From Candidatus Hydrogenedentota bacterium (GTDB lineage: Bacteria; Hydrogenedentota; Hydrogenedentia; Hydrogenedentales; SLHB01), in assembly GCA_963668025.2 (NCBI GenBank), contig CAXXTH010000008.1:76229-140228 (forward strand): a stretch of DNA of 64,000 nucleotides, written 5' to 3'. A program made the position numbers and the translations under genes. Positions 17,473-62,520 of this stretch are shown here, piece after piece (positions within the stretch are counted from its first letter, which is position 1; the number at the start of each line of letters is the position of its first letter). A model generated the notes under the pieces. The model was not told the DNA's origin, did not search any database, and saw only the letters and a program-made list of their open reading frames with translations.

Positions 17473-17594
17473 TGATGCCGCCTATTCTTGCGCTCTAGCC
17501 AATTTGGAAATCCCTGCTTACTTCGGTAAAGTGTAGCTCCGTTGGAGCGCTCATGTGCTGATGTATGGTGGCAACTAGGGATTTGAGAGTTGGC

Positions 17595-18422: not shown

Positions 18423-18523
18423 GAAGCGGCATGGATGGCCTGATTTCGATGACACAGCGGCATCTTTGCTTGGATGCCAGTGGCCCCGGCAATCAAGCAA
18501 GATTTCATCTGTGCCCGCCGCGT

Positions 18524-19462: not shown

Positions 19463-19474
19463 ACAACGCTCCTC

Positions 19475-26620: not shown

Positions 26621-26648
26621 CAACCAACAACAGGACCAAATCCCAACA

Positions 26649-33687: not shown

Positions 33688-33724
33688 TTGACTTTTCACC
33701 TAAATTGTATCATAATATCGATAC
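33688..33724 (+). promoter_or_regulatory. possible promoter (TTGACT - 17 nt - CATAAT) overlapping a short inverted repeat GTATC-N8-GATAC. This is a candidate operator for the GntR regulator.
   Basis: Hexamers, spacing and inverted repeat were read directly. The site lies ~35 nt upstream of the GntR start. Confidence 0.3.
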
Positions 33725-33749
33725 GGTGATACCGACGGAGGACTTATAC

Positions 33750-34157
33750 ATGCTCCACCTCAATTTCAACCAGGGCGACGGCGTTCCTCTCTATCTTCAA
33801 CTCGTCCGCCAAATCAAACACCTCATCGCTACCGGACGCCTCGACCCAGATACGGAACTGCCTCCTGTCCGCCAGCTCGCCCAGCAGCTCGTCATCAATC
33901 CCAATACGGTCGTCCGCGCCTACCGCGAACTCGAAACCGCTGGACTCATCTACAAACGCCGGGGCGCGGGCACATACGTTTCAGACCGGGGGAGCCCATA
34001 CGCCGACGTGGAGCGGAGGCGCTTGCTGGCCGAACGGGCCGATGCACTCCTCGTCGAAGGACGCAATCTGGGATTTGACCTTGAAGAAGTTTTCGAACTC
34101 TTGCGGGAACGTGATCAACAGCTTATCCGGGAACAATCGGAAGAGAAGGGAGTCTGA
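33750..34157 (+). CDS. GntR-family transcriptional regulator, YtrA-like short subfamily
   Basis: GGAGG RBS. Contains PLYLQLVRQIKHLIATGRL..LPPVRQLAQQLVINPNTVVRAYRELE..GLIYKRRGAGTYV. It is ~135 aa with only a short C-terminal helix. Confidence 0.85.
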   Translation: MLHLNFNQGDGVPLYLQLVRQIKHLIATGRLDPDTELPPVRQLAQQLVINPNTVVRAYRELETAGLIYKRRGAGTYVSDRGSPYADVERRRLLAERADALLVEGRNLGFDLEEVFELLRERDQQLIREQSEEKGV

Positions 34158-34160
34158 AGA

Positions 34161-35072
34161 ATGGCATCGATGGAAACTGTAATACAAGTCGAGAATGTGT
34201 CGCGTTGGTTCGGACACAAACAGGCCCTGGACAATGTGAGCCTGTCAGTCCAAAAAGGCCGGGTCTTCGGCCTCGTAGGCGAAAACGGCGCGGGAAAGAC
34301 CACCCTCATCAAACACCTATTGGGTTCCCTCGTGCCCAAGACCGGCGGCGTCCACGTCTTCGGCGTCGATCCCGCGTATGACCCGCCCGCCGTCCTGTCG
34401 CGCATCGGCTATCTGTCCGAAGACCGCGACTTGCCCGGCTGGATGCGCGTGGGCGAGCTGATGCGCTACACCCAGGCCTTCTTCCCCGATTGGGACCAAG
34501 ACTACGCCGAACAATGGCGGCAGCGCCTCGAATTGCCCATCGACGCCAAATTACGCACCCTCTCTCGGGGCGAAAAGGCCAAGGCCGGACTCCTTGCGGC
34601 CTTGGCCCATCGCCCTGAATTACTGCTCCTGGATGAGCCCTCCTCGGGGCTCGACCCTGTGGCCCGGCGCGCGATACTCGAGGCCGTGGTCCGCTCCGTG
34701 GCCGAAGAAGGCCGCACCGTCTTCTTCTCGTCCCACCTCCTCGACGAGATCGAGCGCGTGGCCGACGACGTAGTCATGCTCCACCACGGGCGGGCGATAC
34801 TCGATATGACCATGGAAGAACTTAAATCCAGCCACCACCGCTTCATCATCCGCTTCGAGGACGCCCAAGCGGAATTCCCCCTCGTCCCCGGCGTATTGCA
34901 CGCCGAAGGCGAAAGCCGCGAATGGGCCGTGGTATGCCAGGGCGAGAAAGAAATTCTCGAACAAGCCTTCCGCAACGCAGCCGGACAGATCACCGAATAC
35001 AGCGAGCCATCGCTCGACACCATATTCGTGGCGCATATCCAAAACAACAAATCGCCTTTGCTCAAGCCATAA
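34161..35072 (+). CDS. ABC transporter ATP-binding protein (ABC-2/YtrB-like)
   Basis: Walker A GENGAGKTT, signature LSRGEKAK, Walker B LLLLDEPSSGLD. It starts 3 nt after the GntR stop. Confidence 0.9.
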   Translation: MASMETVIQVENVSRWFGHKQALDNVSLSVQKGRVFGLVGENGAGKTTLIKHLLGSLVPKTGGVHVFGVDPAYDPPAVLSRIGYLSEDRDLPGWMRVGELMRYTQAFFPDWDQDYAEQWRQRLELPIDAKLRTLSRGEKAKAGLLAALAHRPELLLLDEPSSGLDPVARRAILEAVVRSVAEEGRTVFFSSHLLDEIERVADDVVMLHHGRAILDMTMEELKSSHHRFIIRFEDAQAEFPLVPGVLHAEGESREWAVVCQGEKEILEQAFRNAAGQITEYSEPSLDTIFVAHIQNNKSPLLKP

Positions 35073-35100
35073 CAAATGAAAGTTTCTAAGAAGAGGGTCT

Positions 35101-35164
35101 GGGAGAACCCCTCTTAATAAAGAGGGTTTCTCCCAGTGAAGCAGTACAACGGGAGGTTTTCCCC
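35101..35164 (+). promoter_or_regulatory. conserved 5' leader, copy 1: 34-nt hairpin plus an invariant SD-containing segment
   Basis: gggagaacccctcttaataaagagggtttctccc followed by agtgaagcagtacaacgggaggttttcccc ATG. Confidence 0.6.
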
Positions 35165-38100
35165 ATGAACACCAAAGTCCGTGCGCTGATTTGGGAAGAA
35201 TGCCGCGTCTCCGGCGTGCTGGCGATATATAACCTGGCTTTGGGCGCGTTGCTACTAGCGCTCTCCTGGCTGGGCGATTATGGATATGAATGGAATTTCT
35301 ACAGGGGATTCGCGTCGTGTATCGTGCTAGGCATTCCCCTCCTGAGCGTTATGCTCTTCACCCTGGGCGTGAACAACTCCGGCCATCTCACGGCGGGCTT
35401 TCCCCGTCGCATCCTCAATCTTCCCGTGCGGACCAGCGCCGCCGTTTCGATCACACTGACCATGCGTACGCTCTTCTTGCTCCTGCTTGGATTCGGATTG
35501 CTGGGCGTCTGCGCCTTGCGTTTCGGCAGGGCTCCCTGGAGCGCCGCTATTCTGTTCATTGTGTCGCTGTATATATGCGTCCAGATGCTCGACTGGGTGC
35601 GCCAGCCTATATCTGGAATGGCGAGTCTGCTCATTCTGTTCCTGCTGGCCCTGCTCGTTCTAATGCTGGGCAATATGATGGATGTAATACGTTCCTTTAA
35701 ACAAACGGGCTTCTTTTCGGAACTTGATATATCAACTTACTGGGCCTCTGTGCGTCTATGCGTGTTATATGCCGCAGGGCTTGTCATCTCCATTGTTGCT
35801 GTGCGCGCCACCCGGCGCGGCAAGCGCGTCGGCCCGCCCGAACTATGGGAACTGCCCGCTCTATGGTCACAGCACCGCCATGCCCGGCAAGAACCGTTCT
35901 CTTCACCAATGGACGCCGCGGTATGGTTCGAGCGCAAACGCTCGCCACTCGTCATGCCCGGGCTTACGCTGTTGATTTTCTCCATGCTATTTACAGCCAT
36001 ATGGCTCGGTACGGACAGAGTGAAGGACACGAGTGCCAATCCAGACTGGACTATCTACAGCAGCCTGGATTGCGTCCTTCTTGGCTCTTTTCTATTAGCG
36101 GCTATGGGATACGGTTTATATCGTGGAGCTTTCAGGCGGAAGCACATTTCCACACCTCGCATGCTCCCGTACCTCTATCCCGCCACGGCAGCAGAGATAA
36201 CCAGCGCGCGCATCCGGGCAGGCGCGCTCCAGGCTGGCATGGCTCTGCTTCTGATCGGATTGCTTTATCAAGGCAGCTTTCTACTGCGTTATGATGGGTT
36301 AGCGTCGAGCGTGTTCTCAGCCGCCCTACGGGAAGGCTATGTCTCTTGGCGCGAAGTGCTCTGGTCTTTCTTATCGCCCCTTTTCCTCACGGGCCTGGTG
36401 GCTTGGGCGTTTCTGTCGCCCAACTGGCTCTTCTGGATTGCCTATATCTTCTTGCCCATAGGAGCCTCCATTTTAGTGGTTATTTGCGGATTCGAGGATG
36501 TAGATGGCGTCATGAATGCAGCCAATTGCCTGGTGATCATTAGCGCCATCACACTTGCTGCGATTCTGGCATGGCGCAAAGGCCTGATGCAAGGCCGCAC
36601 GCTCGCGGAAGTTTTCGGCGTTTGGCTGCTGCTGGCTTGGCTGCTCTATCCCATGGATGTGATGGCGTCAATTGATTCTAAAGCTATATCAGCATATAAC
36701 ATGCTACAGTTGTTGTTATCAAGCCTGGCGTGGGCCAGCCTCGGGCCCATGCCGTTTATCGGCACCCTCATCTTCTCGAATGCCATGCGGCACAGTGGAC
36801 TCAATTGCCGCCAAGATCCCCGGCAGCACACGCGCCGCCCTTCAGGCCACCGCGTCCGGAACGCCTTGGCGATAGCAGCAGTGATTGCGTTAAGCCTGTG
36901 GTTCAAATGGCCCGTGGAACCCGCCTGGCGCACCTATCTGCATGAAAAAGGTTTCACTACATCCACTCATGAACTCCATGCGCGCCGCGAACCAGTGCCC
37001 GATGATGAAAACTTAGCGCTACGCTACAAAGCCGCAGGAGAAAAATTCGATGCCTGCACAGCAGAATTGGAAGCACGGCTAGATGCGGATCAGACCCACT
37101 ATACAGATTCCTACGGCCAGTCAATCAGCGCGTTTGATCACTTCATGGAACAATTGCCCATCGTTGGTAAAGGGCTTCAGAGTCTCTCAAACCTTCCGAT
37201 ATCGCCGGAGCAAGTGCCAATCACCCGGATCTATTGGGATGCCGTGGGCAAAGAAGTAGCTCCCATGTTGCACGCGGCGGCGGCATCCGGTTTGACGCGC
37301 GGCTATAACCCGGATCCCAGCGAGTATTCGCCATCCGATGACTACATAACCTATCTCAACAAGGCTCGAACACTAGGCCCTCTACTCAACCTGGAAGCGC
37401 TCTGGGCTTGCGTGGAGAACCGCCCGCACGATGCCGTCCAAGCCATTAATGCCATTTACCCGCTTTCATTCGCTCTAAGACAGGATAAACTAATACTGTC
37501 ATATATAAATGCAGACGTTCTAATGCGCATGGGCATCAATGCACTTGAAAGCACACTCCATGGCATTGTCTTGAGTGATTCAGAGCTGGTTTCGCTGGAC
37601 CATTCCCTGCCATCCGCGCAAGCCATGGAACAGGACGACGCACTCCAGCAATTCCTTATAGGCGAATCCATGAAATTCCTCAATCTTTACGCTCACGGCT
37701 GGATTGAAGACGATCTTTTTCAAAATATGACAGACGCCCTTCCCATGCCTTGGAGGCTTGTGAAACCACCACTTTTCGAGGATGCTTTTTTGCTTCATGA
37801 AATTAACAAGAATAGCAACCGGAGTTTCCCGCTGGTTGGCGATAGAAACGAAGAACAAACGGACGAAAACGATTCCACACGCGCCTACATATATAAATGG
37901 ATGCGTGTTTCCGGCTATTTCGGAGTCGAATGGCGCGCCCGAACCTATCTTGACCTTGCCCACATCGGAATAGCAGTCGAGCGCTACCGCCTGGCTACGG
38001 GCCATTTCCCTGAAAAACTGGAGGAACTGGTGCCCACCTATATCAGCACCATTCCTCAAGACCCCTATACCCAAATGGCCGCACCATTGCGGTATCTGCT

Positions 38101-38269
38101 TAAACCAGACGGCTCATGTATCGTCTACAGCGTGTTTGAAGACGGAACAGACGACAACGGCGCTTCTTTTGACAGAGGAACTGAGAAAGGCGATCTGATT
38201 TTCACACTCCTGCCGCCCGAGCAACGCACGACAGTGACGCCTGCAACAAACAATGCGGATGGAGTATGA
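35165..38269 (+). CDS. large polytopic membrane protein, tandem paralog 1 of 4 (1034 aa): two ABC-2-like permease modules plus a ~480-aa C-terminal extracytoplasmic domain ending in a GspG/pseudopilin-like motif
   Basis: MNTKVRALIWEECRVSG and AAVWFERKRSP each precede a block of hydrophobic helices, ~14-15 in total by eye. The C-terminus is GIAVERYRLATGHFPEKLEELVPTYISTIPQDPYTQMAAPLRYLLKPDGSCIVYSVFEDGTDDNGASF. Confidence 0.85.
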   Translation: MNTKVRALIWEECRVSGVLAIYNLALGALLLALSWLGDYGYEWNFYRGFASCIVLGIPLLSVMLFTLGVNNSGHLTAGFPRRILNLPVRTSAAVSITLTMRTLFLLLLGFGLLGVCALRFGRAPWSAAILFIVSLYICVQMLDWVRQPISGMASLLILFLLALLVLMLGNMMDVIRSFKQTGFFSELDISTYWASVRLCVLYAAGLVISIVAVRATRRGKRVGPPELWELPALWSQHRHARQEPFSSPMDAAVWFERKRSPLVMPGLTLLIFSMLFTAIWLGTDRVKDTSANPDWTIYSSLDCVLLGSFLLAAMGYGLYRGAFRRKHISTPRMLPYLYPATAAEITSARIRAGALQAGMALLLIGLLYQGSFLLRYDGLASSVFSAALREGYVSWREVLWSFLSPLFLTGLVAWAFLSPNWLFWIAYIFLPIGASILVVICGFEDVDGVMNAANCLVIISAITLAAILAWRKGLMQGRTLAEVFGVWLLLAWLLYPMDVMASIDSKAISAYNMLQLLLSSLAWASLGPMPFIGTLIFSNAMRHSGLNCRQDPRQHTRRPSGHRVRNALAIAAVIALSLWFKWPVEPAWRTYLHEKGFTTSTHELHARREPVPDDENLALRYKAAGEKFDACTAELEARLDADQTHYTDSYGQSISAFDHFMEQLPIVGKGLQSLSNLPISPEQVPITRIYWDAVGKEVAPMLHAAAASGLTRGYNPDPSEYSPSDDYITYLNKARTLGPLLNLEALWACVENRPHDAVQAINAIYPLSFALRQDKLILSYINADVLMRMGINALESTLHGIVLSDSELVSLDHSLPSAQAMEQDDALQQFLIGESMKFLNLYAHGWIEDDLFQNMTDALPMPWRLVKPPLFEDAFLLHEINKNSNRSFPLVGDRNEEQTDENDSTRAYIYKWMRVSGYFGVEWRARTYLDLAHIGIAVERYRLATGHFPEKLEELVPTYISTIPQDPYTQMAAPLRYLLKPDGSCIVYSVFEDGTDDNGASFDRGTEKGDLIFTLLPPEQRTTVTPATNNADGV

Positions 38270-38377
38270 CCATGCATAATCGATACTTATTGTAAAGGTG
38301 TGTTATTTTATTATTGAAGTGTAAAAATAAATAACTTATACATATATACAGAATAAAAAACACGAAGCCACTAATCT

Positions 38378-38585
38378 GTCATCCCCGCGAAAGCGGGGAT
38401 CCAGGACATTTGCGCTGGATTCCTGCTTTCGCGGGAATGACAACGAGGTAGATTATGGGGTTTTATACAACTGATGTTATTACGCAGTGGAACACGTTCA
38501 CCATGCACGTTGCTTTTTTTAGCGCGCCCAAGAACAGCTCCAATTGAGTTGCATTTATGACTCGTTACGGCGAATGGTGCGTTAG
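38378..38585. repeat. dispersed ~200-nt repeat, copy B (same orientation as copy A)
   Basis: See 5086..5283. The core is gtcatccccgcgaaagcggggatccaggacatttgcgctggattcctgctttcgcgggaatgacaacgaggtag. Confidence 0.85.
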
Positions 38586-38624
38586 CATCCGTATAACTTG
38601 AAAGTGCTTCAACGAAACCAGAGT

Positions 38625-38689
38625 GGGAGAGGCCTTCTTCCAAAAGAAGGTTCTCCCCAGTGGAAGCAGTACAACGGGAGGTTTTCCCC
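38625..38689 (+). promoter_or_regulatory. conserved 5' leader, copy 2
   Basis: gggagaggccttcttccaaaagaaggttctcccc hairpin, then agtggaagcagtacaacgggaggttttcccc ATG. Confidence 0.6.
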
Positions 38690-41600
38690 ATGAACACCAA
38701 AGTGCGCGCATTGATTTGGGAAGAATGCCGTGTCTCCGGCGTGCTGGCCCTGGTTTGCTTCTCCTTGGGCGTCTTGATCCTGGTTGTCTCGATGCTTGGA
38801 GACGATCCCTATACGTGGTGGTACTACAAAGACTACGCCTTACTGGTCGTACTGGGTATTCCTATGGTATGCGCCCTGTTGTTTGTCCTGGGCCTAGATT
38901 ACTCCGGCCATCTCACCGCAGGCTTTCCCCGGCGCATCCTCAACCTGCCTGTACAGACCCATACCACGGTCGCGATTACATTCACTCTTCGCACGTTCTT
39001 TATGTTTCTCCTTGGGCTAGGATTGCTGGGCGCTTGCGCCGTACGTTTCGGACAAGCGCCCTGGCTTTCCAGCATTCTGCTGATCATTACGTTATATTTG
39101 TGTATTCAGGTGCTCGATTGGCTGCGCCAGCCTATCTCCGGCCTGGCAAGCGCAATCATCCTTGCACTGCTGGGGCTATTAGTCCTGGCATTGGGTAACT
39201 TTGAAGTACTCATTAATCACTTTGCCAAACAGAATCTGGGTATCCTTGAGGCTTCCATAGCACTATGTACATTGTATGTGCTTGGACTCGGCGTCTCGAT
39301 TGCCGCCGTAAGCGCCACCCGGCGCGGCAAACGCGTCGGCCCGCCGGAACTCTGGGAACTGCCCGCTTTGTGGACACAAAACCGCCACGCCCGCCAAGAG
39401 CCGTTCGCATCACCCATGGACGCCGCGGTATGGTTCGAGCGCAGCCGTTCACCGTTTGTCATGCCCGGCCTTACGCTGTTAATTTTCACCATGCTATTCG
39501 CGGCGATGTGGCTCGGTACGGACAGAGCAACGGGAACGAGTTTCAATAACGGTTTTCCAGACTGGACTATTTACAGCAGCTTGGATTGCGCCCTTCTTGG
39601 TTCGTTCCTATTAGCGGCCATCGGATACGGCCTGTACCGGGGAGCTTTCTGGTGGAAGCGCGTTTCCACGCCACGCATGATCCCGTTTCTCTATCCCGCC
39701 ACGGCGGGGGAAATCACCCACGCGCACCTGCGCGCAGCCGCGATTCAGGTGGGCACGGTTTTGCTCTTGGTTGGGCTGATTTTCCAAGGCAGTTTTCTGC
39801 TACGTCACGGCGGTTTCACGTCGAGCGTGTTCACGGCCGCCCTGCGAGAAGGCTATGTCTCCTGGCGCGAGTTGATATGGTCCTTTCTTGCACCGATTCT
39901 CCTGACCGGCCTTATGGCGTGGGCTTTTCTATCGCCCAATTGGCTCTGGGGAGCCTATATCTTCTTGCCCATAGGAGCCTCCATTTTACTGGTTATTTGC
40001 GGATTCGATAACGTGGATGGCGTCATGAATGCGGCCATTTGTCTGTCCATCATCGCCGTCATCGCACTTGCAGCGATTCTGGCCTGGCGCAAAGGGCTGA
40101 TGGCTGGCCGCACCCTCGTGGGGCTCTTCGGCATTTGGCTGCTGCTGGCTTGGCTGCTTTTCCCCATGGACCTGGTGGCGACCATCGGGGCGCAAGATGT
40201 CACCAGATACGACCTGCTGCAATTGGGATTGACGAGCCTGGCATGGGCCAGCCTCGGGCCCATGCCATACATTGGCATCCTCATTTTCACCAATAGGCTG
40301 CGCCACGGCAAGAGGAATTACCCGCAAAATCCCAGTCTGCACAAGCGCCGCCCATCAGGCCACCGCGTCCGGAACGCCTTGGCGATAGTAGGAGTGATTG
40401 CGTTAAGCCTGTGGCTCAAATGGCCCATGGAACCCACCTGGCGCATGTATCTCCATCAAAAAGGATTTGCCACCTCTATCCGGGAACTCAACGCACGCTA
40501 TCCGGAAGTGCCGGACGATGAGAATCTGGCGCTGCGTTACCGGACGGCCTGGGAGAAACTCGACGCCTGTGCAGCGGAACTGAAAACGCAACAAAACGCT
40601 GATCACACCCAATATACAGATTCTAATGGAATTCCAAGCGACGCGGCTACGCTCTTTATGCAGCAATTGCCGATCATGGGTTTTGCCGATGTTCGTTCAG
40701 ATGCTCCCATGACGCCGGAGCAAACGCAAGCCATCCGAACCTACTGGGACGCCGTGGGGAAACACGTGGCTCCCATGCTGCACGCGGCGGCGGAATCCGG
40801 CTTGACCCGCAGCTTTTATAGTCCAGTAGATCCTATGGGAGCGGTTGTGTCGGGAGGCCATCTCGCTAGAACTCGAGAATTAGCCCGTTTGCTCAGCCTT
40901 GAAGCGCTGTTAGCGTGTGTGGAGAACCGCCCGCACGACGCCGCCCAAGCTATTTGCGCCATTTACCCATTGTCATTCACGGCGCGGCAAGAACCGCTGA
41001 TTATCTCTCACCTCGTCTCAGTGGCGATCATGAGCATAGGGGCTGGCGCGCTTGAAGACACATGCAAAAGCATTGCCTTGGATGATTCGGCTCTTGCCGC
41101 CTTGGACCATTGTTTGCCATCCGCACGAACCTTGGAACAGAGCTATCAGCTCGAACAAGCCATAGTGGGGGAATCGGCATATTCTCTTAATTACCAATCT
41201 CAACTCTGGTTTGGAGTGAATCACCACTTTTCAACAAAGGATATGTTTTTCCTCACGCTTTTGCAGGTGTTTTGGCAGCCTCATTATGAAGAGATCTTCT
41301 TTATTCATGAGTTTAACGAAAAAAATGGAAGAAAATATCCCGTCATTGAAGCAGGAAATCAAGGACCCGTTGCAAAATGCGATTTGACTCGCGTTTTCTT
41401 CTTCCAATTGCTCAGTAATCTTCGTGTCGTAAACGCTGAATGGCGAATCCGCACCATGATGGATCTTGCCCATGTTGGGATTGCAGTCGAGCGCTATCGA
41501 CTGGCGGCGGGCCACTTCCCCGAAAAACTAGAAGAACTGGTTCCGGCCTATATCAGCGCCGTACCCTTGGATCCCTATACGCAAATGGCCGAACCATTGC

Positions 41601-41794
41601 GATACCTGGCCAAACCAGACGGCTCGTACATCATCTACAGTGTATATGAGGATGGAGAAGATGAGAAAGGTGCGCCCTATAGCTATAACGGAAAGGATAG
41701 AAAAGGCGACCTGTCTTTCACCCTCTTGCCGCCCGAGAAGCGCATGGCGACGGCCTACCTCATGGACCAACCATTAAAAAACGTAGCGCCGTGA
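38690..41794 (+). CDS. large polytopic membrane protein, tandem paralog 2 of 4 (1034 aa)
   Basis: Same architecture and conserved blocks as paralog 1. The start is set at ATG 38690 (MNTKVRALIWEECRVSG). Confidence 0.85.
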   Translation: MNTKVRALIWEECRVSGVLALVCFSLGVLILVVSMLGDDPYTWWYYKDYALLVVLGIPMVCALLFVLGLDYSGHLTAGFPRRILNLPVQTHTTVAITFTLRTFFMFLLGLGLLGACAVRFGQAPWLSSILLIITLYLCIQVLDWLRQPISGLASAIILALLGLLVLALGNFEVLINHFAKQNLGILEASIALCTLYVLGLGVSIAAVSATRRGKRVGPPELWELPALWTQNRHARQEPFASPMDAAVWFERSRSPFVMPGLTLLIFTMLFAAMWLGTDRATGTSFNNGFPDWTIYSSLDCALLGSFLLAAIGYGLYRGAFWWKRVSTPRMIPFLYPATAGEITHAHLRAAAIQVGTVLLLVGLIFQGSFLLRHGGFTSSVFTAALREGYVSWRELIWSFLAPILLTGLMAWAFLSPNWLWGAYIFLPIGASILLVICGFDNVDGVMNAAICLSIIAVIALAAILAWRKGLMAGRTLVGLFGIWLLLAWLLFPMDLVATIGAQDVTRYDLLQLGLTSLAWASLGPMPYIGILIFTNRLRHGKRNYPQNPSLHKRRPSGHRVRNALAIVGVIALSLWLKWPMEPTWRMYLHQKGFATSIRELNARYPEVPDDENLALRYRTAWEKLDACAAELKTQQNADHTQYTDSNGIPSDAATLFMQQLPIMGFADVRSDAPMTPEQTQAIRTYWDAVGKHVAPMLHAAAESGLTRSFYSPVDPMGAVVSGGHLARTRELARLLSLEALLACVENRPHDAAQAICAIYPLSFTARQEPLIISHLVSVAIMSIGAGALEDTCKSIALDDSALAALDHCLPSARTLEQSYQLEQAIVGESAYSLNYQSQLWFGVNHHFSTKDMFFLTLLQVFWQPHYEEIFFIHEFNEKNGRKYPVIEAGNQGPVAKCDLTRVFFFQLLSNLRVVNAEWRIRTMMDLAHVGIAVERYRLAAGHFPEKLEELVPAYISAVPLDPYTQMAEPLRYLAKPDGSYIIYSVYEDGEDEKGAPYSYNGKDRKGDLSFTLLPPEKRMATAYLMDQPLKNVAP

Positions 41795-41913
41795 AGAAGG
41801 CGTTACCGTGGTGAATATCCAGAGAATTCACTACGCAGGACACAGAGATCATAGAGAGCGGGAATGACGGAACTGCATTTCAACACTTGAACGTAAATGA
41901 ACAAAACCAGAGT

Positions 41914-41979
41914 GGGAGAGCCCCTCTTCCAAAAGAAGGTTTCTCCCCAGTGGAAGCAATACAACGGGAGGTTTTCCCC
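41914..41979 (+). promoter_or_regulatory. conserved 5' leader, copy 3
   Basis: gggagagcccctcttccaaaagaaggtttctcccc hairpin, then agtggaagcaatacaacgggaggttttcccc ATG. Confidence 0.6.
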
Positions 41980-44900
41980 ATGAACACCAAAGTGCGCGCA
42001 TTGATATGGGAAGAGTGCCGCGTCTCCGGCGTGCTCGCCCTACATAATCTAGTGCTGGGGGCCTTGCTCTTGGTATTTTCGTTCTACGCATATGAACACG
42101 ATTCGCCTTTATGGGGTGATTATGAAGATGCCGCTTTCTTTATCGTAATTGGATTTCCCCTGATGAGCGCCGTGCTATTCGTCTTGGGCAAAGATAACAC
42201 CGGCCATCTCATCATGGGATTCCCCAAGCGCATTCTCCATCTGCCCGTGCATACCCATACCACCGTTGCGATCACACTTACATTTCGTATGCTCTTTTTA
42301 TTGTTGCTCGGATTCGGATTACAGAGCGTATGCACATTGCGTTTTGGCGTAGCGCCCTGGAACGCCAACATCCTGTTCATTATGTCACTGTATCTACTCA
42401 TACAGGTTTTCGATTGGCTGCGCCAGCTCATATCCGGCCTTGCAAGCGTGCTCGCTATCGCATTGTTAGCCATTCTCGTGTTGGTCTTGGGCAACATGAA
42501 GAACATCATGCAAAGCTTATTACAAGCGGATTTGAATACATTTTGGGCTTTTATTTGCATATGTGCGTTATACGCCGCCGGACTCGGCGTCTCGATTTGG
42601 GCCGTGCGAGCCACCCGGCGCGGCAAACGCTTTGGCCCGCCCGAACTCTGGGAACTGCCCGCCCTGTGGACACAAAATCGCCCCGCCCGGCAAGAGCCGT
42701 TCGCTTCACCCATGGACGCTGCGGTGTGGTTCGAGCGCAAACGCTCCCTCCTTCTGATGCCCACGCTCACGTTACTGTTTTTTAGCCTCCTACTCGCCGT
42801 GATATGGATAGGCACGGATGATGTAAAGCCGCCGCGTATGTGGGATAACTATGACCTCTTTACTTCCGATTGGACTATTTACAGCAGTCTCTATTGCGCC
42901 TTTCTTGGCTCTTTCCTCTTAGCCTCTGCGGGATACGGTATATACCGTGGCGCTTTCTGGCGAAGGCGTGCCGCCTCCACACAGATGATTCCATATCTTT
43001 GTCCCACGACCACGGCGGAGATCACGGCCTCGCGCATGTTTGCGGGAGCGCTCCAGGCTGGAATGGTCCTTTTTGTGATGGGTTTGCTCTACCACGGCGT
43101 CTTTCTGGCGCGGTACGATGGGTTCGCGTTCCGCGTGTTCACCAGTGCTCTTCACGAAGGCTTTCTCTCCTGGCGCGAACTCAGTTGGGCCTTTCTCTCT
43201 CCATTGGTATTAGTGGGCCTTGTCGCATGGGCCTTTTTATGGCCCAGTTGGCTGATATGGCTTTATATCGACGCTGTTATCATCATATATTTCTTCGGTG
43301 CCTCGCATGTGGGCGGCTTGGTCAACATATTGAGCTGTTCCTTTATCATTGTGGGTATCGCATCGGCGGCTGTATACGCTTGGTTTAGAGGACTGATGTC
43401 CAATCGCCATGCCGCCTGGCTATTTGGAGCCTGGCTGTTGCTGGCGTGGCTCGTGTTCCCTGTGGATGCCATGGCATTCTCCGGCCGTGCAGGCTTGTCC
43501 GCTTACGCGTGGCTTCAAATCGGCCTTCTGAGTTTGGCTTTGGCCAGCCTGGGGCCCATGCCCTATATCGGCATGCTCCTGCATACGAACGAGAAGCGTC
43601 ATAGTCAGAAATGTACACAAAATCCTCTCCAGCACAAGAGGCGTCGCTCCGGCCATGGCGCACGAAACCTGGCGGCGGTGGCTGGTGTAGTCGTATTCTG
43701 TCTATGGCTTAGATGGCCCATAGAGCCTACCTGGGAGGCGTATTTGCATCAACGGGGTTTCCCCACCACCATCCAAGAGCTCTACGCCATGTATGGGCCG
43801 ATCCCGGATGACGAGAACCTGGCGTTACCGTACAAGGCGGCCTGGGAAAAATACGATGCCTACGAGAAAAGACTGGCTGCGGAACTAGATACCGGCCCTA
43901 CTCATTATACAAATGAGATCGGCGTCCCGATCAGTGCGTCCCTGTATTTCCGAGATCAGCTTCCCTATCTCGGCAGCGTCGAAGTGGACGACGGCCCGAT
44001 AACAACCGAGCAGGCACAGATTGCACGCCGGTATTGGCAGGAAGTAGGCAAGGAAGTAGCCCCCATGCTGCACACGGCGGCGGAATCGGGCTTGACGCGC
44101 AGTTGTTATTGGGCACCCGCAAACTTCATGGAACAAATATCTCCAAACATCGATCATCATTCAAAAGTTCGCGCGCTGAGCCGCGTGCTTATGTTTGAAG
44201 CATTCATGGCGTGCATGAATCAGGAGCCTCATGAAGCCGCAAAAGCCATCGCCGCCCAGTTCCCGATGGCCTACTCATTAGAACAGGAACCAGGGCTCAT
44301 TTCCTATCTGGTGTCGATTGCAGTGCTGCAAATGGGCGTTGGCTCTCTGGAAGATACACTCAAACACATTTCCCTGCCTGTAAGTGATCTGCAGTACATC
44401 GACAAGTCCCTGCCGGAGCCCGGCGATCTCCAGCATTTGGAACGGGCCGAGTTAGCCGAATCCGTGGATTATCTGCGTTATTTCTACGAAGGCCGATTTT
44501 TCGGAAAATCCATGACCTCGGAATCCGTTGCCCCTTACCTTCTAGTCTGGCAACTGGCGAAGCCTTCCGTGGAAGAGGAAATCTTTCTAATACATCGCTT
44601 CAACCAAGGGAAAGAAAAAAGACAGGAGCCATACTGTGAAGCGCCTCGGGTATTCCTGTCCAAACTCTCGCTCAGCATTCAACTGGATGAAGTCGAACGG
44701 AATCCACGCACCGGTGTTGCGTTCGCCCGCATCGCAATCGCCATCGAGCGGTATCGTCTAGCTACAGGCCATTTTCCGGAACATCTCGAAGAGCTTATTC
44801 CGGCCTACATGAAGGAGGTTCCGGAAGACCCCTTCGCGCAGCCGCCCGCGCCAATGCGATACCTGCTCAAACCGGACGGCTCGTGCGTCATCTACAGTGT

Positions 44901-45030
44901 CTCTATGGACCACAAGGACGATGGAGGCGCGTCTTTTAACGGACAAACTGGAGATCGGGCTTTCACGCTCTTGCCGCCCGAAAAACGCACGGCGGTGGCT
45001 CCAGCAACAAACCATGCGGATGGAGCCTAA
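41980..45030 (+). CDS. large polytopic membrane protein, tandem paralog 3 of 4 (1016 aa)
   Basis: Same architecture. The start is set at ATG 41980. Confidence 0.85.
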   Translation: MNTKVRALIWEECRVSGVLALHNLVLGALLLVFSFYAYEHDSPLWGDYEDAAFFIVIGFPLMSAVLFVLGKDNTGHLIMGFPKRILHLPVHTHTTVAITLTFRMLFLLLLGFGLQSVCTLRFGVAPWNANILFIMSLYLLIQVFDWLRQLISGLASVLAIALLAILVLVLGNMKNIMQSLLQADLNTFWAFICICALYAAGLGVSIWAVRATRRGKRFGPPELWELPALWTQNRPARQEPFASPMDAAVWFERKRSLLLMPTLTLLFFSLLLAVIWIGTDDVKPPRMWDNYDLFTSDWTIYSSLYCAFLGSFLLASAGYGIYRGAFWRRRAASTQMIPYLCPTTTAEITASRMFAGALQAGMVLFVMGLLYHGVFLARYDGFAFRVFTSALHEGFLSWRELSWAFLSPLVLVGLVAWAFLWPSWLIWLYIDAVIIIYFFGASHVGGLVNILSCSFIIVGIASAAVYAWFRGLMSNRHAAWLFGAWLLLAWLVFPVDAMAFSGRAGLSAYAWLQIGLLSLALASLGPMPYIGMLLHTNEKRHSQKCTQNPLQHKRRRSGHGARNLAAVAGVVVFCLWLRWPIEPTWEAYLHQRGFPTTIQELYAMYGPIPDDENLALPYKAAWEKYDAYEKRLAAELDTGPTHYTNEIGVPISASLYFRDQLPYLGSVEVDDGPITTEQAQIARRYWQEVGKEVAPMLHTAAESGLTRSCYWAPANFMEQISPNIDHHSKVRALSRVLMFEAFMACMNQEPHEAAKAIAAQFPMAYSLEQEPGLISYLVSIAVLQMGVGSLEDTLKHISLPVSDLQYIDKSLPEPGDLQHLERAELAESVDYLRYFYEGRFFGKSMTSESVAPYLLVWQLAKPSVEEEIFLIHRFNQGKEKRQEPYCEAPRVFLSKLSLSIQLDEVERNPRTGVAFARIAIAIERYRLATGHFPEHLEELIPAYMKEVPEDPFAQPPAPMRYLLKPDGSCVIYSVSMDHKDDGGASFNGQTGDRAFTLLPPEKRTAVAPATNHADGA

Positions 45031-45280
45031 TAGTTAAGATTTCCAATAACCGAAGCTGGAAAGCCAAAACCAGCAGGAGCCGGTGGTATGCACGAAAAAG
45101 AGAACAATAAAGCGGGAGCAAGCTACCGCATTCCATACGCGCTCCACGTTTTACTTATATGTAAATTTGGAGTGCGGCAGCTTGCTGCCGCTTTGGGCGT
45201 GCGGATTCCGCTGGAATGGCCTTTTTTGACCCAACGGCGGCACAAGAGCCTTTTTTGAAAGACCCCTTTCGCGGGGATAA

Positions 45281-45312
45281 CAGTGGAAGCAGTACAACGG
45301 GAGGTTTTCCCC
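45281..45312 (+). promoter_or_regulatory. conserved 5' leader, copy 4. Only the invariant SD segment is retained; the upstream hairpin is replaced by cccctttcgcgggg.
   Basis: cagtggaagcagtacaacgggaggttttcccc ATG, identical to copy 2. Confidence 0.55.
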
Positions 45313-48300
45313 ATGAACACTAAAGTGCGTGCATTGATATGGGAGGAATGCCGCGTCTCCGGCGTCCTCGCCCTATACAATCTGGCGTTGGGGGCCTTGT
45401 TCTTCGCCCTTTCCTTGTTTGAGGATTCATCTGTCCCGTGGAAAAACGGGAACGATGATTTCGCGTTCTGCATTGTGCTCGGATTTCCACTATTAAGCGC
45501 CCTGTTGTTTGTTTTGGGCATGGATAATTCCGGCCATCTCACCATGGGATATCCCCGGCGCATTCTCAATCTCCCCGTCCACACCCATACGACCGTCACG
45601 GTCACGCTGGCGTTCCGCACCCTCTTTTTACTGCTTCTCGGATTTGGATTGCTGGGCATATGCGCCTTGCGTTTTGGCCAAGCGCCCTGGAGCGCTGCCA
45701 TTCTGTTTGTTGCGTCCCTGTATGTGCTCATACAGTTGTTCGATTGGCTGCGCCAGCCGGTGTCCGGATTGGCTAGCTTGCTCCTGGTGTCTGTACTGGC
45801 CTTGCTTGTGTTGCTGTTGGGCAATATGTACGACGTCATGCTCTCTCTAGTAAAAATGGATTGGAATATCTACTGGGCGCTTCTATGTGTAGGTATCTTG
45901 TTTTCTACAGGACTCGGCATATCGATTCTGTCGGTGAGCGCCACCCGGCGCGGTAAGCGCTTCGGCCCGCCCGAGCTATGGGAATTGCCCGCCCTATGGA
46001 CGCGGAACCGCCATGCCCGGCAAGCATCCTTCAACTCCCCGCTGGACGCCGAGGTCTGGTTTGAGCGCAAACGCTCGCCATTGGTGATGCCCGGCCTCAC
46101 GTTGTTGATTTTCGCACTCCTGTTCTCGGTGGCCTGGATAAGCGGAGGCAAATCCAGCGTGTTGGCCAACCAAGACCTATGGAATATCCACAGTAAATTT
46201 GATCTTTCACTCATGGCCTCGTTCCTGCTTGCCGCCATCGGATACGGCATGTATCGCGGGGCCTTCTGGCGAAAACGCGTTTCCACCCCCCATATGATCC
46301 CGTATCTCTATCCCGCCGCCACGGAGGAGATCACCCGTGCACGCATCGGCGCGGGAGCAATCCAGGCCGGCGCGGCCCTCCTGCTCATGGGCTTGGCCTA
46401 TCAAGGCAGTTTTTTGCTGCGGCTCAACGGATACGCAACTGGCGTGTTCGAGGCCGCTCTAGGTGAAGGCTACGCCACTTGGCGCGAAATGATTTGGTCC
46501 TTCCTTTCGCCCCTGTTTTTAGTCGGCCTTATCAGTTGGGCGTTTTTATGGCCCAACCGGCTATTGGCGTTCTACTTCGTCATTCCCATGGGAGTTACGA
46601 TAGTTGCACTCATATGTGGAAAGGAAAAATACGCCGAATTCATTAGCTGCTTGCTGATCATCCCCATCATCGCCTTCGCCGCGTTCCGCGCTTGGCGCAG
46701 AGGGCTGATGCCGGGGCGCGCCCTCGCTGGCGTGTGCGGAGCCTGGCTGCTCCTAGCCTGGCTCTTGTATCCAATGGACATGCTGGCGTCCTTTGCACAA
46801 GAGGATTTCTCGATATATGAAGGCGTATCGAGCCTGGCATGGGCCAGCCTCGGGCCTATGCCGTACATCGGCATGCTCTTCAGCATCAATCGTAAACGCC
46901 ATGGCCAGCGTGGTCCCCAGAATCCCCTCCAGCATGCGCGGCGCATCTCAGGCTATCGCGTCCGCACTGCACTGGCGATAGCCGGAATCGTCGCATTAAG
47001 CCTGTGGCTCAAATGGCCCGTGGAACCGGCCTGGCATACATATCTACATGAGAAGGGTTTTGCCACATCGCTTCGAGAACTCGATGAACGATATGCGCAA
47101 GTGCCCGATGATGAAAATCTGGCGCTGCGGTATCAAGCGGCTTGGGAAAAGCTAGGCGCTTGTACGGCAAAACTGACAACGAAATTAAGCGCGGATCACA
47201 CCGAGTATAAAGATGCCGATGGAATCCCAATCGGTTCCGTTCAACGTTTTTTTGGTCAATTGCCTATCATGGGTATTGGCGGTAGTTTTTTTGAATCAAT
47301 CTCACCTCAATCATATCTGAATGATCCTGCTTCTGAATCCATCTCTCCCACACAAGCGCAAACTGCGCAAACCTACTGGGATGCAGTCGGAAAAGAAGTC
47401 GCGCCTATGCTCCATGCGGCCGCGGAGTCGGGTCTGACGCGCAGCCGGTACCCAATCGATTTATCACAGATAGAGATAAACAACCCGCCGCATCTCGGTG
47501 AATTGGGCCGGCTTGCCAATCTGCTGCGCCTCGAAGCGCTCATGGCCTGCATGAATGACCGTCCTCACGACGCCGCCGAGGCCATTCGCGCGATGTTTCC
47601 ATTGGCGTCTTCTCTCGAATCAGAACCGTTTCTTCCCTCAAAACGCCAATATTCTTCAATCCGTCTTTTAATCGTCGAAGCGCTTCAACACTCATTGGAC
47701 CATCTTTCTATGGACAATTCGGATCTTGCCGAACTAGACAACTGTCTGGCTACCACCCAATCACTAGAGAATCAGGCCTTACTCTATGAGCAGGCTGCAG
47801 TTGGTCAGGGACTAGATAGCTTGATTCCAAATTCGTACGGATTAGTACGCTATCGAAACACTTTGCGCAAGGCGGATACTCCATTATTTCCATGGCGCTT
47901 AGGAAAGCCGCCTATTCACGAGATGATGTTTTATATACATAACCTGAATAGAATAGAAAATTCATATTCCGAAACTGGCCCAGCTAGGTTACAGAGGACT
48001 GGTTTTTTACGCCAGGAATTTGCGGAACCCACTTACTTTCCACGTGTGTTTTTCTATTCGATATTGGGTATGTATTCACCGGATGCACATAAAGAGATTT
48101 CTAATACCCAAACAAATATCGATCTTGCCCGTGTCGGAATCGCCGTTGAACGCTACCGTCTAGCCGCGGGCCATTTCCCCGAACGCCTGGAGGAACTCGT
48201 CCCTGCTTATATCAAAGCCATCCCGAAGGATTTTTTCGCACCAAGACGCACCGCGCCTCTGCGATACCTGCTCAATTCCGACGGTTCATGTGTTGTCTAC

Positions 48301-48459
48301 AGTGTAGGCATGAATCGACAAGATGACGGCGGTGTGCCTTCTGTATCAAAATACATGAAATGTGACGATATACCCTTCAGCCTTTTGCCACCCGGGAAAC
48401 GCACATCACTGGCCCCGCCGGACAAGGCCGTGGCGCCATCCACATACCTGAATAAATAG
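45313..48459 (+). CDS. large polytopic membrane protein, tandem paralog 4 of 4 (1048 aa)
   Basis: Same architecture. The start is set at ATG 45313. This copy is the most divergent in the C-terminal domain. Confidence 0.85.
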   Translation: MNTKVRALIWEECRVSGVLALYNLALGALFFALSLFEDSSVPWKNGNDDFAFCIVLGFPLLSALLFVLGMDNSGHLTMGYPRRILNLPVHTHTTVTVTLAFRTLFLLLLGFGLLGICALRFGQAPWSAAILFVASLYVLIQLFDWLRQPVSGLASLLLVSVLALLVLLLGNMYDVMLSLVKMDWNIYWALLCVGILFSTGLGISILSVSATRRGKRFGPPELWELPALWTRNRHARQASFNSPLDAEVWFERKRSPLVMPGLTLLIFALLFSVAWISGGKSSVLANQDLWNIHSKFDLSLMASFLLAAIGYGMYRGAFWRKRVSTPHMIPYLYPAATEEITRARIGAGAIQAGAALLLMGLAYQGSFLLRLNGYATGVFEAALGEGYATWREMIWSFLSPLFLVGLISWAFLWPNRLLAFYFVIPMGVTIVALICGKEKYAEFISCLLIIPIIAFAAFRAWRRGLMPGRALAGVCGAWLLLAWLLYPMDMLASFAQEDFSIYEGVSSLAWASLGPMPYIGMLFSINRKRHGQRGPQNPLQHARRISGYRVRTALAIAGIVALSLWLKWPVEPAWHTYLHEKGFATSLRELDERYAQVPDDENLALRYQAAWEKLGACTAKLTTKLSADHTEYKDADGIPIGSVQRFFGQLPIMGIGGSFFESISPQSYLNDPASESISPTQAQTAQTYWDAVGKEVAPMLHAAAESGLTRSRYPIDLSQIEINNPPHLGELGRLANLLRLEALMACMNDRPHDAAEAIRAMFPLASSLESEPFLPSKRQYSSIRLLIVEALQHSLDHLSMDNSDLAELDNCLATTQSLENQALLYEQAAVGQGLDSLIPNSYGLVRYRNTLRKADTPLFPWRLGKPPIHEMMFYIHNLNRIENSYSETGPARLQRTGFLRQEFAEPTYFPRVFFYSILGMYSPDAHKEISNTQTNIDLARVGIAVERYRLAAGHFPERLEELVPAYIKAIPKDFFAPRRTAPLRYLLNSDGSCVVYSVGMNRQDDGGVPSVSKYMKCDDIPFSLLPPGKRTSLAPPDKAVAPSTYLNK

Positions 48460-48536
48460 CTTAACCGTACCAATAAAACATATATGCATTTATAAACTTC
48501 TTGCGCTTTTCCTTAACGTTTGGGGAGAGGATAGCT

Positions 48537-49409
48537 ATGAGAATTAGGGCGGTTTCCATGTCTGTTTTAGTGTTGGCGGCGGTATCGCTGATGGTCAACA
48601 TTTCCGAGGGCGGCGGAATGGGTAAAGTGCGCCACGTGGATATGGGTGGGACCCTGAGCATGGAACTCGTGTGGATCCCGCCCGGCGAATTCATGATGGG
48701 CAGTCCAGAAGACGAATCAGAACACAGAAGAGATGAAGTGCCTCAGCACCGAGTGATCATCACACATGGATTCTGGATGGGGAAATACGAAGTGACCCAG
48801 GCGCAGTGGCGGGTGGTGATGGGGAACAATCCGTCTTGCTTTAGCGGTGATGAGCGGCCGGTGGAACAGGTGTCATGGGATGATTGCCAAGAATTTATCT
48901 CCCGATTGAACGCACGAGTTCTCGAAGGCGGTTTCCGTTTGCCGACAGAGGCGGAATGGGAGTATGCCTGCCGGGCGGGAACCACTTCGGCGTTCCATAT
49001 GGGGGATGCCATCTCCACGAAGCGGGCGAATTTCAACGGAAACGCAGTATATGGCCTAGGAAGCAAGGGGATATATCGCAAGGAGACGACGCCGGTAGGT
49101 AGTTTTTCTGCGAACGATTTGGGATTGTACGATATGCATGGGAATGTTTTTGAATGGTGCCAAGATAAATATTGTATCTACTCGAACGATGCAGCCATCG
49201 ATCCGAAGGGTTCTGAAGCAGGCGTTTTCCGGGTATATCGGGGTGGTAGCTGGAGCCGATGTCCAGGAAACTGCCGGGCTGCGTATCGAGGTGGGAGCAT
49301 GCCGGATACCCGGCGCAGCAACCTGGGTTTTCGTGTCGTGCTATCCCAACTCTCAGAACCGGAGATTGTTGACATGCCTCCAAGCAAAATAGCATCAATA
49401 AAAAGATAG
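48537..49409 (+). CDS. FGE/SUMF1-fold (EgtB/PvdO-like) domain protein with an N-terminal signal/anchor
   Basis: GGAGAGG RBS. Contains FWMGKYEVTQAQW, RPVEQVSWDD, RLPTEAEWEYACRAG, YDMHGNVFEWCQD, RGGSW and LGFRVV. Confidence 0.85.
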   Translation: MRIRAVSMSVLVLAAVSLMVNISEGGGMGKVRHVDMGGTLSMELVWIPPGEFMMGSPEDESEHRRDEVPQHRVIITHGFWMGKYEVTQAQWRVVMGNNPSCFSGDERPVEQVSWDDCQEFISRLNARVLEGGFRLPTEAEWEYACRAGTTSAFHMGDAISTKRANFNGNAVYGLGSKGIYRKETTPVGSFSANDLGLYDMHGNVFEWCQDKYCIYSNDAAIDPKGSEAGVFRVYRGGSWSRCPGNCRAAYRGGSMPDTRRSNLGFRVVLSQLSEPEIVDMPPSKIASIKR

Positions 49410-49559: not shown

Positions 49560-50498
49560 ATGCGCCTAGTAGAAGAACAACCGCTTGCCGCGCCATGCAC
49601 CACCGCCACACCGGAAATCCTCGTCGTAGGCGGGGGGAAAGGCGGAGTGGGGAAGACCTGCTTTTCCGTCAATATCGCCGTCGAGATCGCCCGCAAAGGC
49701 TGGCGCGTCATCCTGGTCGACGCCGACCTGAGCTGTTCGAATATCGAGACTGTCTTAGGCGCCCGGTGCGACATCAAGCTCGATGATTTCTTCTATCAAA
49801 AAGGCAGCAAGACCCTCGACCGGGTGTTGTGCCCCACGCCCTATGATAATTTGTCGCTTATTCCCGGCACCACCGGCCTGCTCGATGTGGCCAATCCCCG
49901 TTACCAGCAGAAAGTCGCCTTCATCCGGGAACTCAAGCAGCTCGACGCGGACCTGATCATCATCGATCTCGACGCCGGGGCGCACCTCAATACGCTCGAT
50001 TTTTATCTTCTGACCGAGACCAACGGCGTCCTGGTGATCACCCCGGAAAAGACCAGCATCGACAACGCATTCAAGTTTCTCCGCGCCGCCTTGTTCCGGC
50101 GCATCGAGCGGTTCTACCAAAGCCCGGAAGTCGCATTGTTGCTCAAGCGCAACGAAACCCTGACCGAGTTCATCTCATGCGTCCAAAAATCCGAAGTGCT
50201 GGACGAAGTGGCCGTGAAGCAGATCTGCCGCGAATGCGTCTCGCTCGCCAAGGCCATCAAGCCCAAGATCGTCGTCAACCGCGCCACGAACTCCTACGAG
50301 GCACAGATCGCCGCGAATATCCTGGCGAAATACGCCCGCCAGAAACTCATGATCCAGCCCGAAAGCCTCGGCTTCCTATATTTTGATAAGTGTGTTTCCG
50401 ATGCGGTAAACTCCGGCGTGCCCTTCATCATCGGGTATCCGAACCGGAAGATTACGGCCTGTATAGCCGACATTGCCAGTCGGCTTGGATTTTTCTAA
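49560..50498 (+). CDS. MinD/ParA-family P-loop ATPase (FlhG/MinD-like)
   Basis: Deviant Walker A VVGGGKGGVGKT, and VILVDADL. Confidence 0.75.
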   Translation: MRLVEEQPLAAPCTTATPEILVVGGGKGGVGKTCFSVNIAVEIARKGWRVILVDADLSCSNIETVLGARCDIKLDDFFYQKGSKTLDRVLCPTPYDNLSLIPGTTGLLDVANPRYQQKVAFIRELKQLDADLIIIDLDAGAHLNTLDFYLLTETNGVLVITPEKTSIDNAFKFLRAALFRRIERFYQSPEVALLLKRNETLTEFISCVQKSEVLDEVAVKQICRECVSLAKAIKPKIVVNRATNSYEAQIAANILAKYARQKLMIQPESLGFLYFDKCVSDAVNSGVPFIIGYPNRKITACIADIASRLGFF

Positions 50499-50500
50499 TC

Positions 50501-61241: not shown

Positions 61242-61263
61242 TTGGCCTGGATGTGTTGTCGTG

Positions 61264-62331: not shown

Positions 62332-62520
62332 TCTGGTGACTCCTTTATGGGAAGCTGAATAAACATTCATGTCTGCCGCATCATGTCACATTCCATCTTT
62401 CTTGTCAAGCTCTTTCGTATTTTCCTATGCCTGGCGCCAAGGCCGTGAGTATTCGGAGCCAGACGCATATACCGGATTAGCTCCTCCTGCTGGGAATGGT
62501 GAGTTTCGCGGGAAAATGAA

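Follow-up and report, generated by a model that had tools for sequence, protein, structure and literature searches.

A 64,000-nucleotide (nt) stretch of DNA from a Candidatus Hydrogenedentota bacterium (the window) carries, on its plus strand, a gene for a short GntR regulator, a gene for an ATP-binding cassette (ABC) ATPase, and four head-to-tail genes for paralogous membrane proteins of about 1,000 residues (P1 to P4). Our analysis of sequences and predicted structures makes it reasonably likely that these genes specify an autorepressed ABC machine of an undescribed type, in which four alternative fused permeases, differing mainly in the periplasm, work on one ATPase dimer. We read the large protein as the membrane partner of the ATPase because the adjacency of their genes is conserved, because conservation falls on the cytoplasmic side, because the nucleotide-binding domain (NBD) is of an exporter class, and because the same periplasmic module is fused to ABC permeases in Gemmataceae-type proteins.

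Open reading frames (ORFs) and Pfam matches bear out the gene set and coordinates given in a preliminary description of this DNA. The regulator gene lies at 33750-34157 (135 residues from the ATG, within an ORF from 33705; Pfam GntR, 1.2e-15) and the ATPase gene at 34161-35072 (Pfam ABC_tran, 3.5e-25). They are followed by the genes for P1 (35165-38269, 1034 residues), P2 (38690-41794, 1034 residues), P3 (41980-45030, 1016 residues), and P4 (45313-48459, 1048 residues). The paralogs align end to end, with 54-63% identity to P1 (P2, 63%; P3, 54%; P4, 55%) or 52-62% by BLASTP, and the motifs that had been listed for them are all present in this alignment. At the DNA level, the four genes are units of a tandem array that repeats every 3.3-3.5 kb at 63-88% identity, which is far above chance. 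Synonymous sites between the paralogs are saturated (protein identity 52-63%).

An exhaustive profile search recovered approximately 100 full-length cluster representatives, revealing that the large proteins form a real family. Scanning collections of metagenomes and of one genome per species yielded 34 loci, and most of the named ones are metagenome-assembled genomes of Candidatus Hydrogenedentota. The order GntR-ATPase-large protein is kept in every related locus with upstream DNA (~30 of 36), which supports the earlier assignment of a GntR plus ATPase operon form. In loci other than the window, only ~10-70 nt separate the stop codon of the ATPase gene from the start of the permease gene. 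Genes for other membrane proteins occur neither between nor beside the trio in annotated loci. The large protein is only 23-31% identical between loci, while the ATPase and regulator are 58-72% identical.

Arrays of the large-protein gene also recur, so the four-fold array is not unique to the window. Although most loci are single-copy, tandem arrays of two to at least five copies are present on five other contigs. Loci L012, L030, and L034 have two permease copies each, L031 has at least three, and L025 (ERZ869909 NODE-268, 1-13048) contains four complete copies and the end of a fifth, with the start of the array outside the fetched DNA. In L025, two types of N-terminal extension alternate (MSSAATATRIPFA... 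and MSSD.TATGF.FRR...), which suggests duplication of a two-gene unit. Since arrays recur, several fused permeases per ATPase gene are a repeated evolutionary outcome in this family. The proposal that the architecture is undescribed also held: the four paralogs have no Pfam or NCBIfam match, family members are named only "hypothetical protein," and searches of Pfam, NCBIfam, PADLOC, and the literature found no description of the system. Membership in an anti-phage defence system was considered and rejected, as PADLOC gave generic ABC-ATPase similarity only and no match for the large proteins.

Hydropathy and charge bias divide the large protein into about six and then about nine transmembrane (TM) helices and a soluble C-terminal stretch of ~450 residues. 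Predicted cytoplasmic loops contain a total of 35 lysines and arginines, compared with ~8 in the periplasmic loops. A first AlphaFold2 model, made with nine sequences, was poor in the membrane part (predicted local distance difference test score [pLDDT] 57), while a model of residues 1-590 made with 101 family members reached a pLDDT of 88.1 and a predicted template modelling (TM) score of 0.81 (pTM). Together, model and charges place an N-terminal amphipathic helix (residues 3-36) that runs into TM1, TM1-6 starting and ending on the cytoplasmic side, a 48-residue cytoplasmic linker that is basic and contains a second amphipathic helix (248-259), and then TM7-12. An extra hairpin (TM13-14), a basic loop, and TM15 complete the 15 TM helices (6+6+3; residues 1-585 of P1) and lead the remaining 450 residues outward. 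Thus, hydropathy, charge bias, and the better model agree with the layout that had been described, about six helices, about nine more, and then a soluble region.

The hallmarks of type V ABC exporters are connecting helices, coupling elements, and an EH-turn-EH re-entrant motif (PMC11406275). Connecting helices are present in the paralog model, where the two amphipathic helices precede TM1 and TM7, and each half is predicted to have six TM helices with N and C termini inside, as in type V and ABC-2 membrane domains. The model also has short helices (81-84 and 330-337) within the conserved cytoplasmic TM2-3 and TM8-9 loops, which carry an LPV.T or YPAT motif. Relative to type V exporters, these are plausible positions for coupling loops. 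Conservation among 46 family members is highest in the N-terminal amphipathic helix (0.73), the second amphipathic helix (0.69), the end of TM4 (0.68), and the TM2-3 loop (0.64), compared with 0.31-0.40 in the TM helices. The best-conserved elements are therefore predicted cytoplasmic parts, and they match the elements that contact the NBD in type V exporters (PMC11406275).

Comparison of the four paralogs revealed the same pattern of retention inside and divergence outside. Identity is 100% over the first 20 residues, 84% in the cytoplasmic linker, and 57-59% in the membrane halves. In the periplasmic part, it is 57% at residues 586-720, 40% at 721-830, and 24% at 831-915, and 58% at the C-terminal end, which is described below. 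Divergence mainly in the periplasm, as had been proposed, thus describes the array well (24-57% in these segments versus 84-100% in the cytoplasmic elements). The 20 identical N-terminal residues are a family-wide motif (M-N-x-K-x-R-A-L-x-W-E-E-x-R-V-G-G). We rejected gene conversion as the only cause of this identity, given how widely the family has the motif and given synonymous differences among the four copies.

The ATPase has intact catalytic motifs. By sequence, it fits the general definition of an ABC NBD, with a Walker A motif (GENGAGKTT), a degenerate signature (LSRGEKAK), a Walker B motif with its catalytic glutamate (LLLLDEPS), and an H-loop (SSH). Its best NCBIfam matches are PmtA (3e-47), GldA (1e-43), and DrrA (1e-40), all of them below the family cut-offs, and it shares 58-65% identity with the corresponding ATPases of related loci. 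The partners of NBDs of the PmtA/GldA/DrrA class are ABC-2 or type V permeases. Since one ATPase gene accompanies four permease genes, the paralogs probably share it.

The soluble part of the large protein is predicted to be helical at residues 586-915 and to end in a long helix and a small β-sheet at 916-1020 (nt 37910-38224 in P1). A profile of this C terminus matched the major pseudopilin (GspG/EpsG) of type II secretion systems (T2SS) in six of its seven top matches in the Protein Data Bank (PDB), the best being 2kep_A (E = 0.0029), with the helix and β region in register. Pfam T2SSG (PF08334) passes its cut-off in a stand-alone relative (P0146; 22.5 bits versus a cut-off of 21) and is seen weakly in 10 of the 46 family members (best 5.8e-4), although it is undetected in the four window paralogs taken singly. 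When the family profile was compared with PDB sequences, GspG was again the only match apart from a rhodopsin match in a TM stretch, which we judged to be due to chance. Foldseek with the first model gave no significant match for the soluble domain. The C terminus had been described as pseudopilin-like, and in fold and homology this stands. However, the domain follows 915 residues of polytopic protein and has no prepilin leader, no cleavage or N-methylation motif, no hydrophobic polymerization helix, and no N_methyl Pfam match. By sequence comparison, then, the C terminus is remotely but consistently GspG-like, a pseudopilin-type head and not a pseudopilin.

The periplasmic module, consisting of the helical part and the GspG-like end, extends well beyond this family. 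With the full-length profile, 35,793 cluster representatives were matched at a threshold of E≤0.001, falling to 18,979 at E≤1e-10 and to 1,991 at E≤1e-30; some share of the weaker matches cover only the short GspG-like end. Many of the better matches are proteins of ~450 residues in which the whole module comes after a single N-terminal anchor helix. These stand-alone proteins are unnamed or "hypothetical," and none has a recorded Pfam family; a word-indexed search with the soluble-domain profile likewise returned 13 proteins, all unnamed. The module is also fused C-terminally to bona fide double ABC-2 permeases in the Gemmataceae-type P0010 family (E = 4e-51). As this fusion is independent, it ties the module to ABC double permeases.

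The regulator has the features of the YtrA subfamily, as judged from its sequence: a GntR winged helix-turn-helix (wHTH; residues 29-92 of the 150-residue ORF), a very short C-terminal domain of ~60 residues, and a gene that opens the ABC operon in every locus. In NCBIfam, it matched PmtR over its full length (2.6e-15) and also Rv1152, both below cut-off, and it shares 58-72% identity with the corresponding regulators of related loci. The top promoter-like site of the region is a sigma-70-type promoter at 33688-33716 (plus strand; TTGACT-17-CATAAT; score 10/12). Its -10 hexamer lies within a palindromic operator-like site at 33706-33725 (plus strand; TGTAT-N10-ATAC(g/a)), which is the presumed GntR site and fits the GT..AC type of GntR operator. 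The palindrome occurs once in the window, only at the operon's own promoter. In alignments of upstream regions, 10 homologous loci have in common a TTGAC -35 box, placed alike with respect to the GntR start, and a TGTAT-N10-ATACA palindrome enclosing the -10 hexamer. The block TTGAC-N14-17-(T/G)TGTAT.A.A.T.TCGATACA lies ~30-70 nt 5′ of the GntR start in L001, L004-L006, L008-L011, L013, L014, L019, and L020, while L016 and L018 have a different GntR upstream sequence with TTGTAT/ACACA repeats. This layout is the classic arrangement of an autorepressor, and we infer that the GntR protein binds the palindrome. As P2-P4 have no operator-like site of their own, expression of the four paralogs from one promoter is the simplest view.

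A model that accommodates these observations is as follows. At the single promoter, the short YtrA-type protein would bind the palindrome that brackets the -10 box, and derepression would yield one transcript encoding the ATPase and four alternative membrane subunits. Each paralog would be a complete fused membrane domain of two halves (TM1-6 and TM7-12), each half opened by a cytoplasmic amphipathic helix and bearing a conserved loop after its second helix. Each would bind a homodimer of the single ATPase, as Rv1217c of Mycobacterium tuberculosis does with two copies of Rv1218c, while TM13-15 would put the 450-residue domain, a helical region and then a GspG-fold head, into the periplasm. The complex would use ATP hydrolysis to export or extract a hydrophobic or amphipathic compound of the envelope, or else to move the periplasmic domain. 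Export is suggested by analogy, as it is what the closest named NBD/regulator pairs (PmtR-PmtABCD and YtrA-type operons) do. Since the ATPase-facing parts are kept and the periplasmic part diverges, the four paralogs would represent four specificities on one motor.

Several results weigh against this model. None of the 46 family members matched an ABC-2 Pfam family (PF01061, PF12679, PF12698, PF12730, PF13346, and others), even at E≤10. Alignment with hhalign to a genuine fused double ABC-2 family (PF12679/PF12730) gave a probability of <1%, compared with 92.9% for a positive control, the two halves of the control family. Comparison with genuine ABC-2 domains by hmmsearch was negative as well. 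Foldseek searches of the PDB with the pLDDT-88 model returned nothing at E≤0.001. Internal duplication of the two TM domains (TMDs) lacked statistical support in shallow and deep profiles (E = 0.03, probability 1.7%), and the EH-turn-EH motif is not evident between TM5 and TM6, where there is an 8-residue loop or at most a short amphipathic helix (171-180 in the first model). In addition, three examples of stand-alone module genes had neither conserved nor ABC neighbors, so that the module does not need a transporter for its function. Finally, the modeled periplasmic domain hangs from one C-terminal helix, which would be a weak lever for mechanotransmission.

Weak similarities nonetheless point toward type V proteins. 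The only Foldseek matches with moderate probability and a root-mean-square deviation <14 Å were type V ABC membrane domains. The best over the whole length was 8k1p_A, a mycobacterial efflux pump in the ADP- and vanadate-bound state (probability 0.51, 522 columns, TM-score 0.32-0.36), which from its accession, adjoining those of the Rv1217c-1218c entries 8K1M-8K1O, would be Rv1217c. NosY (7znq_y) matched with a probability of 0.28 (TMt 0.45), and ABCG1 with a probability of 0.89, the latter with the poor first model. The best alignment of one half with the other, though not significant, is colinear, pairing RALIWEECRV with DAAVWFERKRS and LPVRT with YPAT. The membrane part had been called ABC-2/NosY-like. 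The topology and the amphipathic segments that open each half agree with this, but homology could not be demonstrated, and comparison with PF12679/PF12698-type permeases, which had been proposed as a check, gave no match and only weak similarity of fold.

We considered whether nothing crosses the membrane and the proteins form a mechanotransducing ABC machine. By analogy with MacB, LolCDE, FtsEX, and BceAB, ATP-driven motion would reposition the periplasmic domain onto a partner in the periplasm or outer membrane, for which a secretin, an envelope polymer, and a pilus or pseudopilus are examples. In favor of this view, the periplasmic domain is both large and conserved, the paralogs diversify in it, and thousands of clusters contain the module as an autonomous membrane-anchored protein. 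Moreover, the GspG fold normally acts through protein-protein contacts in the T2SS. However, the family does not fit the type VII ABC class (MacB/FtsX/BceB): no FtsX or MacB_PCD Pfam match was found in it, and the modeled periplasmic domain is attached through one terminal helix at the C terminus and not inserted between core helices. Nor does the window or any of the related loci have pilus or secretin genes close by. On balance, we consider this alternative unlikely. A further reading is that the membrane part, with its 6+6+3 topology and with no homology to permease families or significant PDB fold match detected despite the confident model, is an unrecognized class of ABC membrane domain, the module is a pseudopilin-mimicking adaptor that links an ABC motor or a simple anchor to envelope machinery, and the arrays diversify that contact; we hold it to be somewhat less likely still.

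The transporter-like proteins might instead be sensors, reporting an envelope signal to the GntR protein much as Bce-type systems sense flux, with the four paralogs as four inputs. The YtrA-type regulator has no ligand-binding domain of its own, the sole operator-like site is at the operon's own promoter, and the regulator and ATPase are far better conserved than the membrane protein, all of which would suit such a role. But no interaction domain was identified on the regulator or ATPase, self-regulation by itself does not require four paralogs, and PmtR-type regulators are reported to bind the transported compound directly. We consider this alternative improbable. In a last alternative, the membrane part is no ABC partner but a membrane enzyme or scaffold that is only co-regulated with the ATPase; in its favor, nothing in the sequence of that part, and nothing significant in its structure, resembles an ABC TMD. 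We hold this to be very improbable: it would leave an exporter-class ATPase without a membrane partner in ~30 loci, the genes are tightly adjacent, the top-conserved residues are cytoplasmic, where NBD contacts are expected, and the periplasmic module is found in other proteins joined to genuine ABC-2 permeases.

The spacers of the array contain further repeated elements. Directly 5′ of each paralog ATG, the alignment revealed a nearly invariant 27-nt plus-strand leader with a Shine-Dalgarno sequence (GAAGCAGTACAACGGGAGGTTTTCCCC; 35138-35164, 38663-38689, 41953-41979, and 45286-45312). An intercistronic stem-loop precedes P1 (35099-35136, plus strand) and has equivalents before P2 (~38625-38657) and P3 (~41914-41947) but none before P4; the 98-nt hairpin-containing regions fold at -33, -33, and -26 kcal/mol. 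Because leader and hairpins are absent from homologous single-copy loci, they are part of the duplicated unit. We rejected the hairpins as intrinsic terminators, as no U-tract lies 3′ of the stem, and leader and hairpin gave only chance matches to known RNA families, far under gathering scores. That they act in the segmental stability or processing of the mRNA is conjecture. We also observed a palindrome resembling repetitive extragenic palindromic (REP) elements, with 28-nt arms (TGTCATCCCCGCGAAAGCGGGGATCCAG / CTGGATTCCTGCTTTCGCGGGAATGACA) and two full copies in the window (38377-38442 and 5092-5143), the first in the P1-P2 spacer. Upstream of P4, half of this palindrome (45263-45283) replaces the hairpin.

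A gene for a secreted protein of the FGE-sulfatase fold follows P4 on the plus strand (48537-49409, ORF from 48501; Pfam FGE-sulfatase, 6e-51). The protein is present as had been noted, with a signal-peptide-like N terminus when read from the ATG at 48537, but gene-neighborhood comparison found its gene adjacent to the trio in none of the related loci. We therefore judge this co-oriented neighbor to be probably no component of the system. Directly 3′ of this gene, 49560-51214 (plus strand) encodes a ParA/MinD-like ATPase and then a bactofilin-domain protein.

Two other long ORFs were examined as possible fifth paralogs and rejected. The first (30139-33267, minus strand, starting ~480 nt upstream of the GntR start) encodes a 1042-residue single chain with an N-terminal extension of ~180 residues followed by ABC_membrane, ABC_tran, and DUF1854. 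The second (58197-61316, minus strand) encodes a 1039-residue protein that has a single hydrophobic segment at its N terminus and matches no Pfam family, and adjoins recA (61264-62370); its hhalign probability was 0.4%. Elsewhere in the window, a 2953-residue ORF (5395-14256, plus strand) combines a pair of GH94 supersandwich domains with a catalytic GH94 domain and a glucoamylase-like one, the architecture of cyclic β-1,2-glucan synthase. The regions 16543-21661 and 26478-27521 contain a minus-strand chemotaxis-type cluster, with CheA (19475-21661) and a fusion of CheD with a receiver domain (18524-19462), and two plus-strand genes for HDOD-domain proteins.

If our reading is correct, the locus represents an ABC architecture beyond current family libraries, in which one ATPase gene serves alternative fused permeases that vary in the periplasm. 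It also reveals a widespread periplasmic module with a pseudopilin-type head, for which the only family-library match is the weak T2SSG match of the head. For Hydrogenedentota, a candidate phylum without a genetic system, it provides an envelope operon that is conserved and probably inducible, with a promoter and a predicted operator. The conserved motor and regulator (58-72%), set against a fast-evolving membrane subunit (23-31%), suggest adaptation to variable external ligands or partners.

Among known systems, the inferred architecture can be compared with that of Rv1217c-Rv1218c, the M. tuberculosis type V ABC exporter (PDB 8K1M-8K1O; PMC11406275). Both would combine two TMDs in one polypeptide with a homodimer of a separately encoded single NBD, and in both, here by prediction, TM1 and TM7 are each preceded by an amphipathic connecting helix; the coupling elements that Rv1217c has at TM2-3 and TM8-9 would have plausible counterparts in the paralog loops. 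Unlike the paralogs, Rv1217c has 12 TM helices, no large periplasmic domain, and one permease gene rather than an array, and it has EH-turn-EH motifs that are not evident here; the two share no sequence similarity and only the weak fold match described above. In gene order, the locus resembles the Staphylococcus phenol-soluble-modulin exporter operon PmtR-PmtABCD, Bacillus subtilis ytrABCDEF, and Listeria timABR, in which a short GntR gene comes first and a gene for a DrrA-class ATPase follows. PmtR-PmtABCD also supplies the best NCBIfam match of the ATPase and the full-length match of the regulator, all scores being below family cut-offs, and these operons share a palindromic operator-like site at the promoter. 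However, their permeases are separate, recognizable ABC-2 proteins of ~250 residues with no periplasmic domains, and their hosts are Firmicutes, whereas ours is a diderm candidate phylum.

The Gemmataceae-type P0010 proteins, which are annotated as NosY-like by homology only, carry the same module at residues 842-1170, C-terminal on a double permease of 12-13 TM helices and ~1150-1200 residues. Their halves are recognizable ABC-2 domains (PF12679 and PF12730) unrelated in sequence to those of the paralogs, and no GntR or ATPase gene adjoins in the one locus examined; this family is likewise uncharacterized. The GspG/EpsG globular domain (PF08334) aligns with the C-terminal 100 residues, sharing a helix (A.A.E.YR...G.(L/F)P), then Y(L/I)..VP.DP(W/F)...(Y), and then Y S.G.D..D.GG. 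Unlike GspG, the domain here has none of the segments used for processing and polymerization, and since it ends a polytopic protein, it cannot assemble into a pseudopilus in the usual way. One ATPase serving several membrane components, which gene counts suggest here, is found in group II energy-coupling factor (ECF) transporters and with the multitask ATPases MsiK and MsmK, but those systems are importers with unrelated membrane components. Thus, the YtrA-type repressor, the exporter-class NBD, the fused double membrane domain as in Rv1217c, and the GspG-fold domain are of known kinds. What is new is the family of membrane domains, which may also be a new class of fold, together with the periplasmic module and the recurrent arrays of several permeases on one ATPase.

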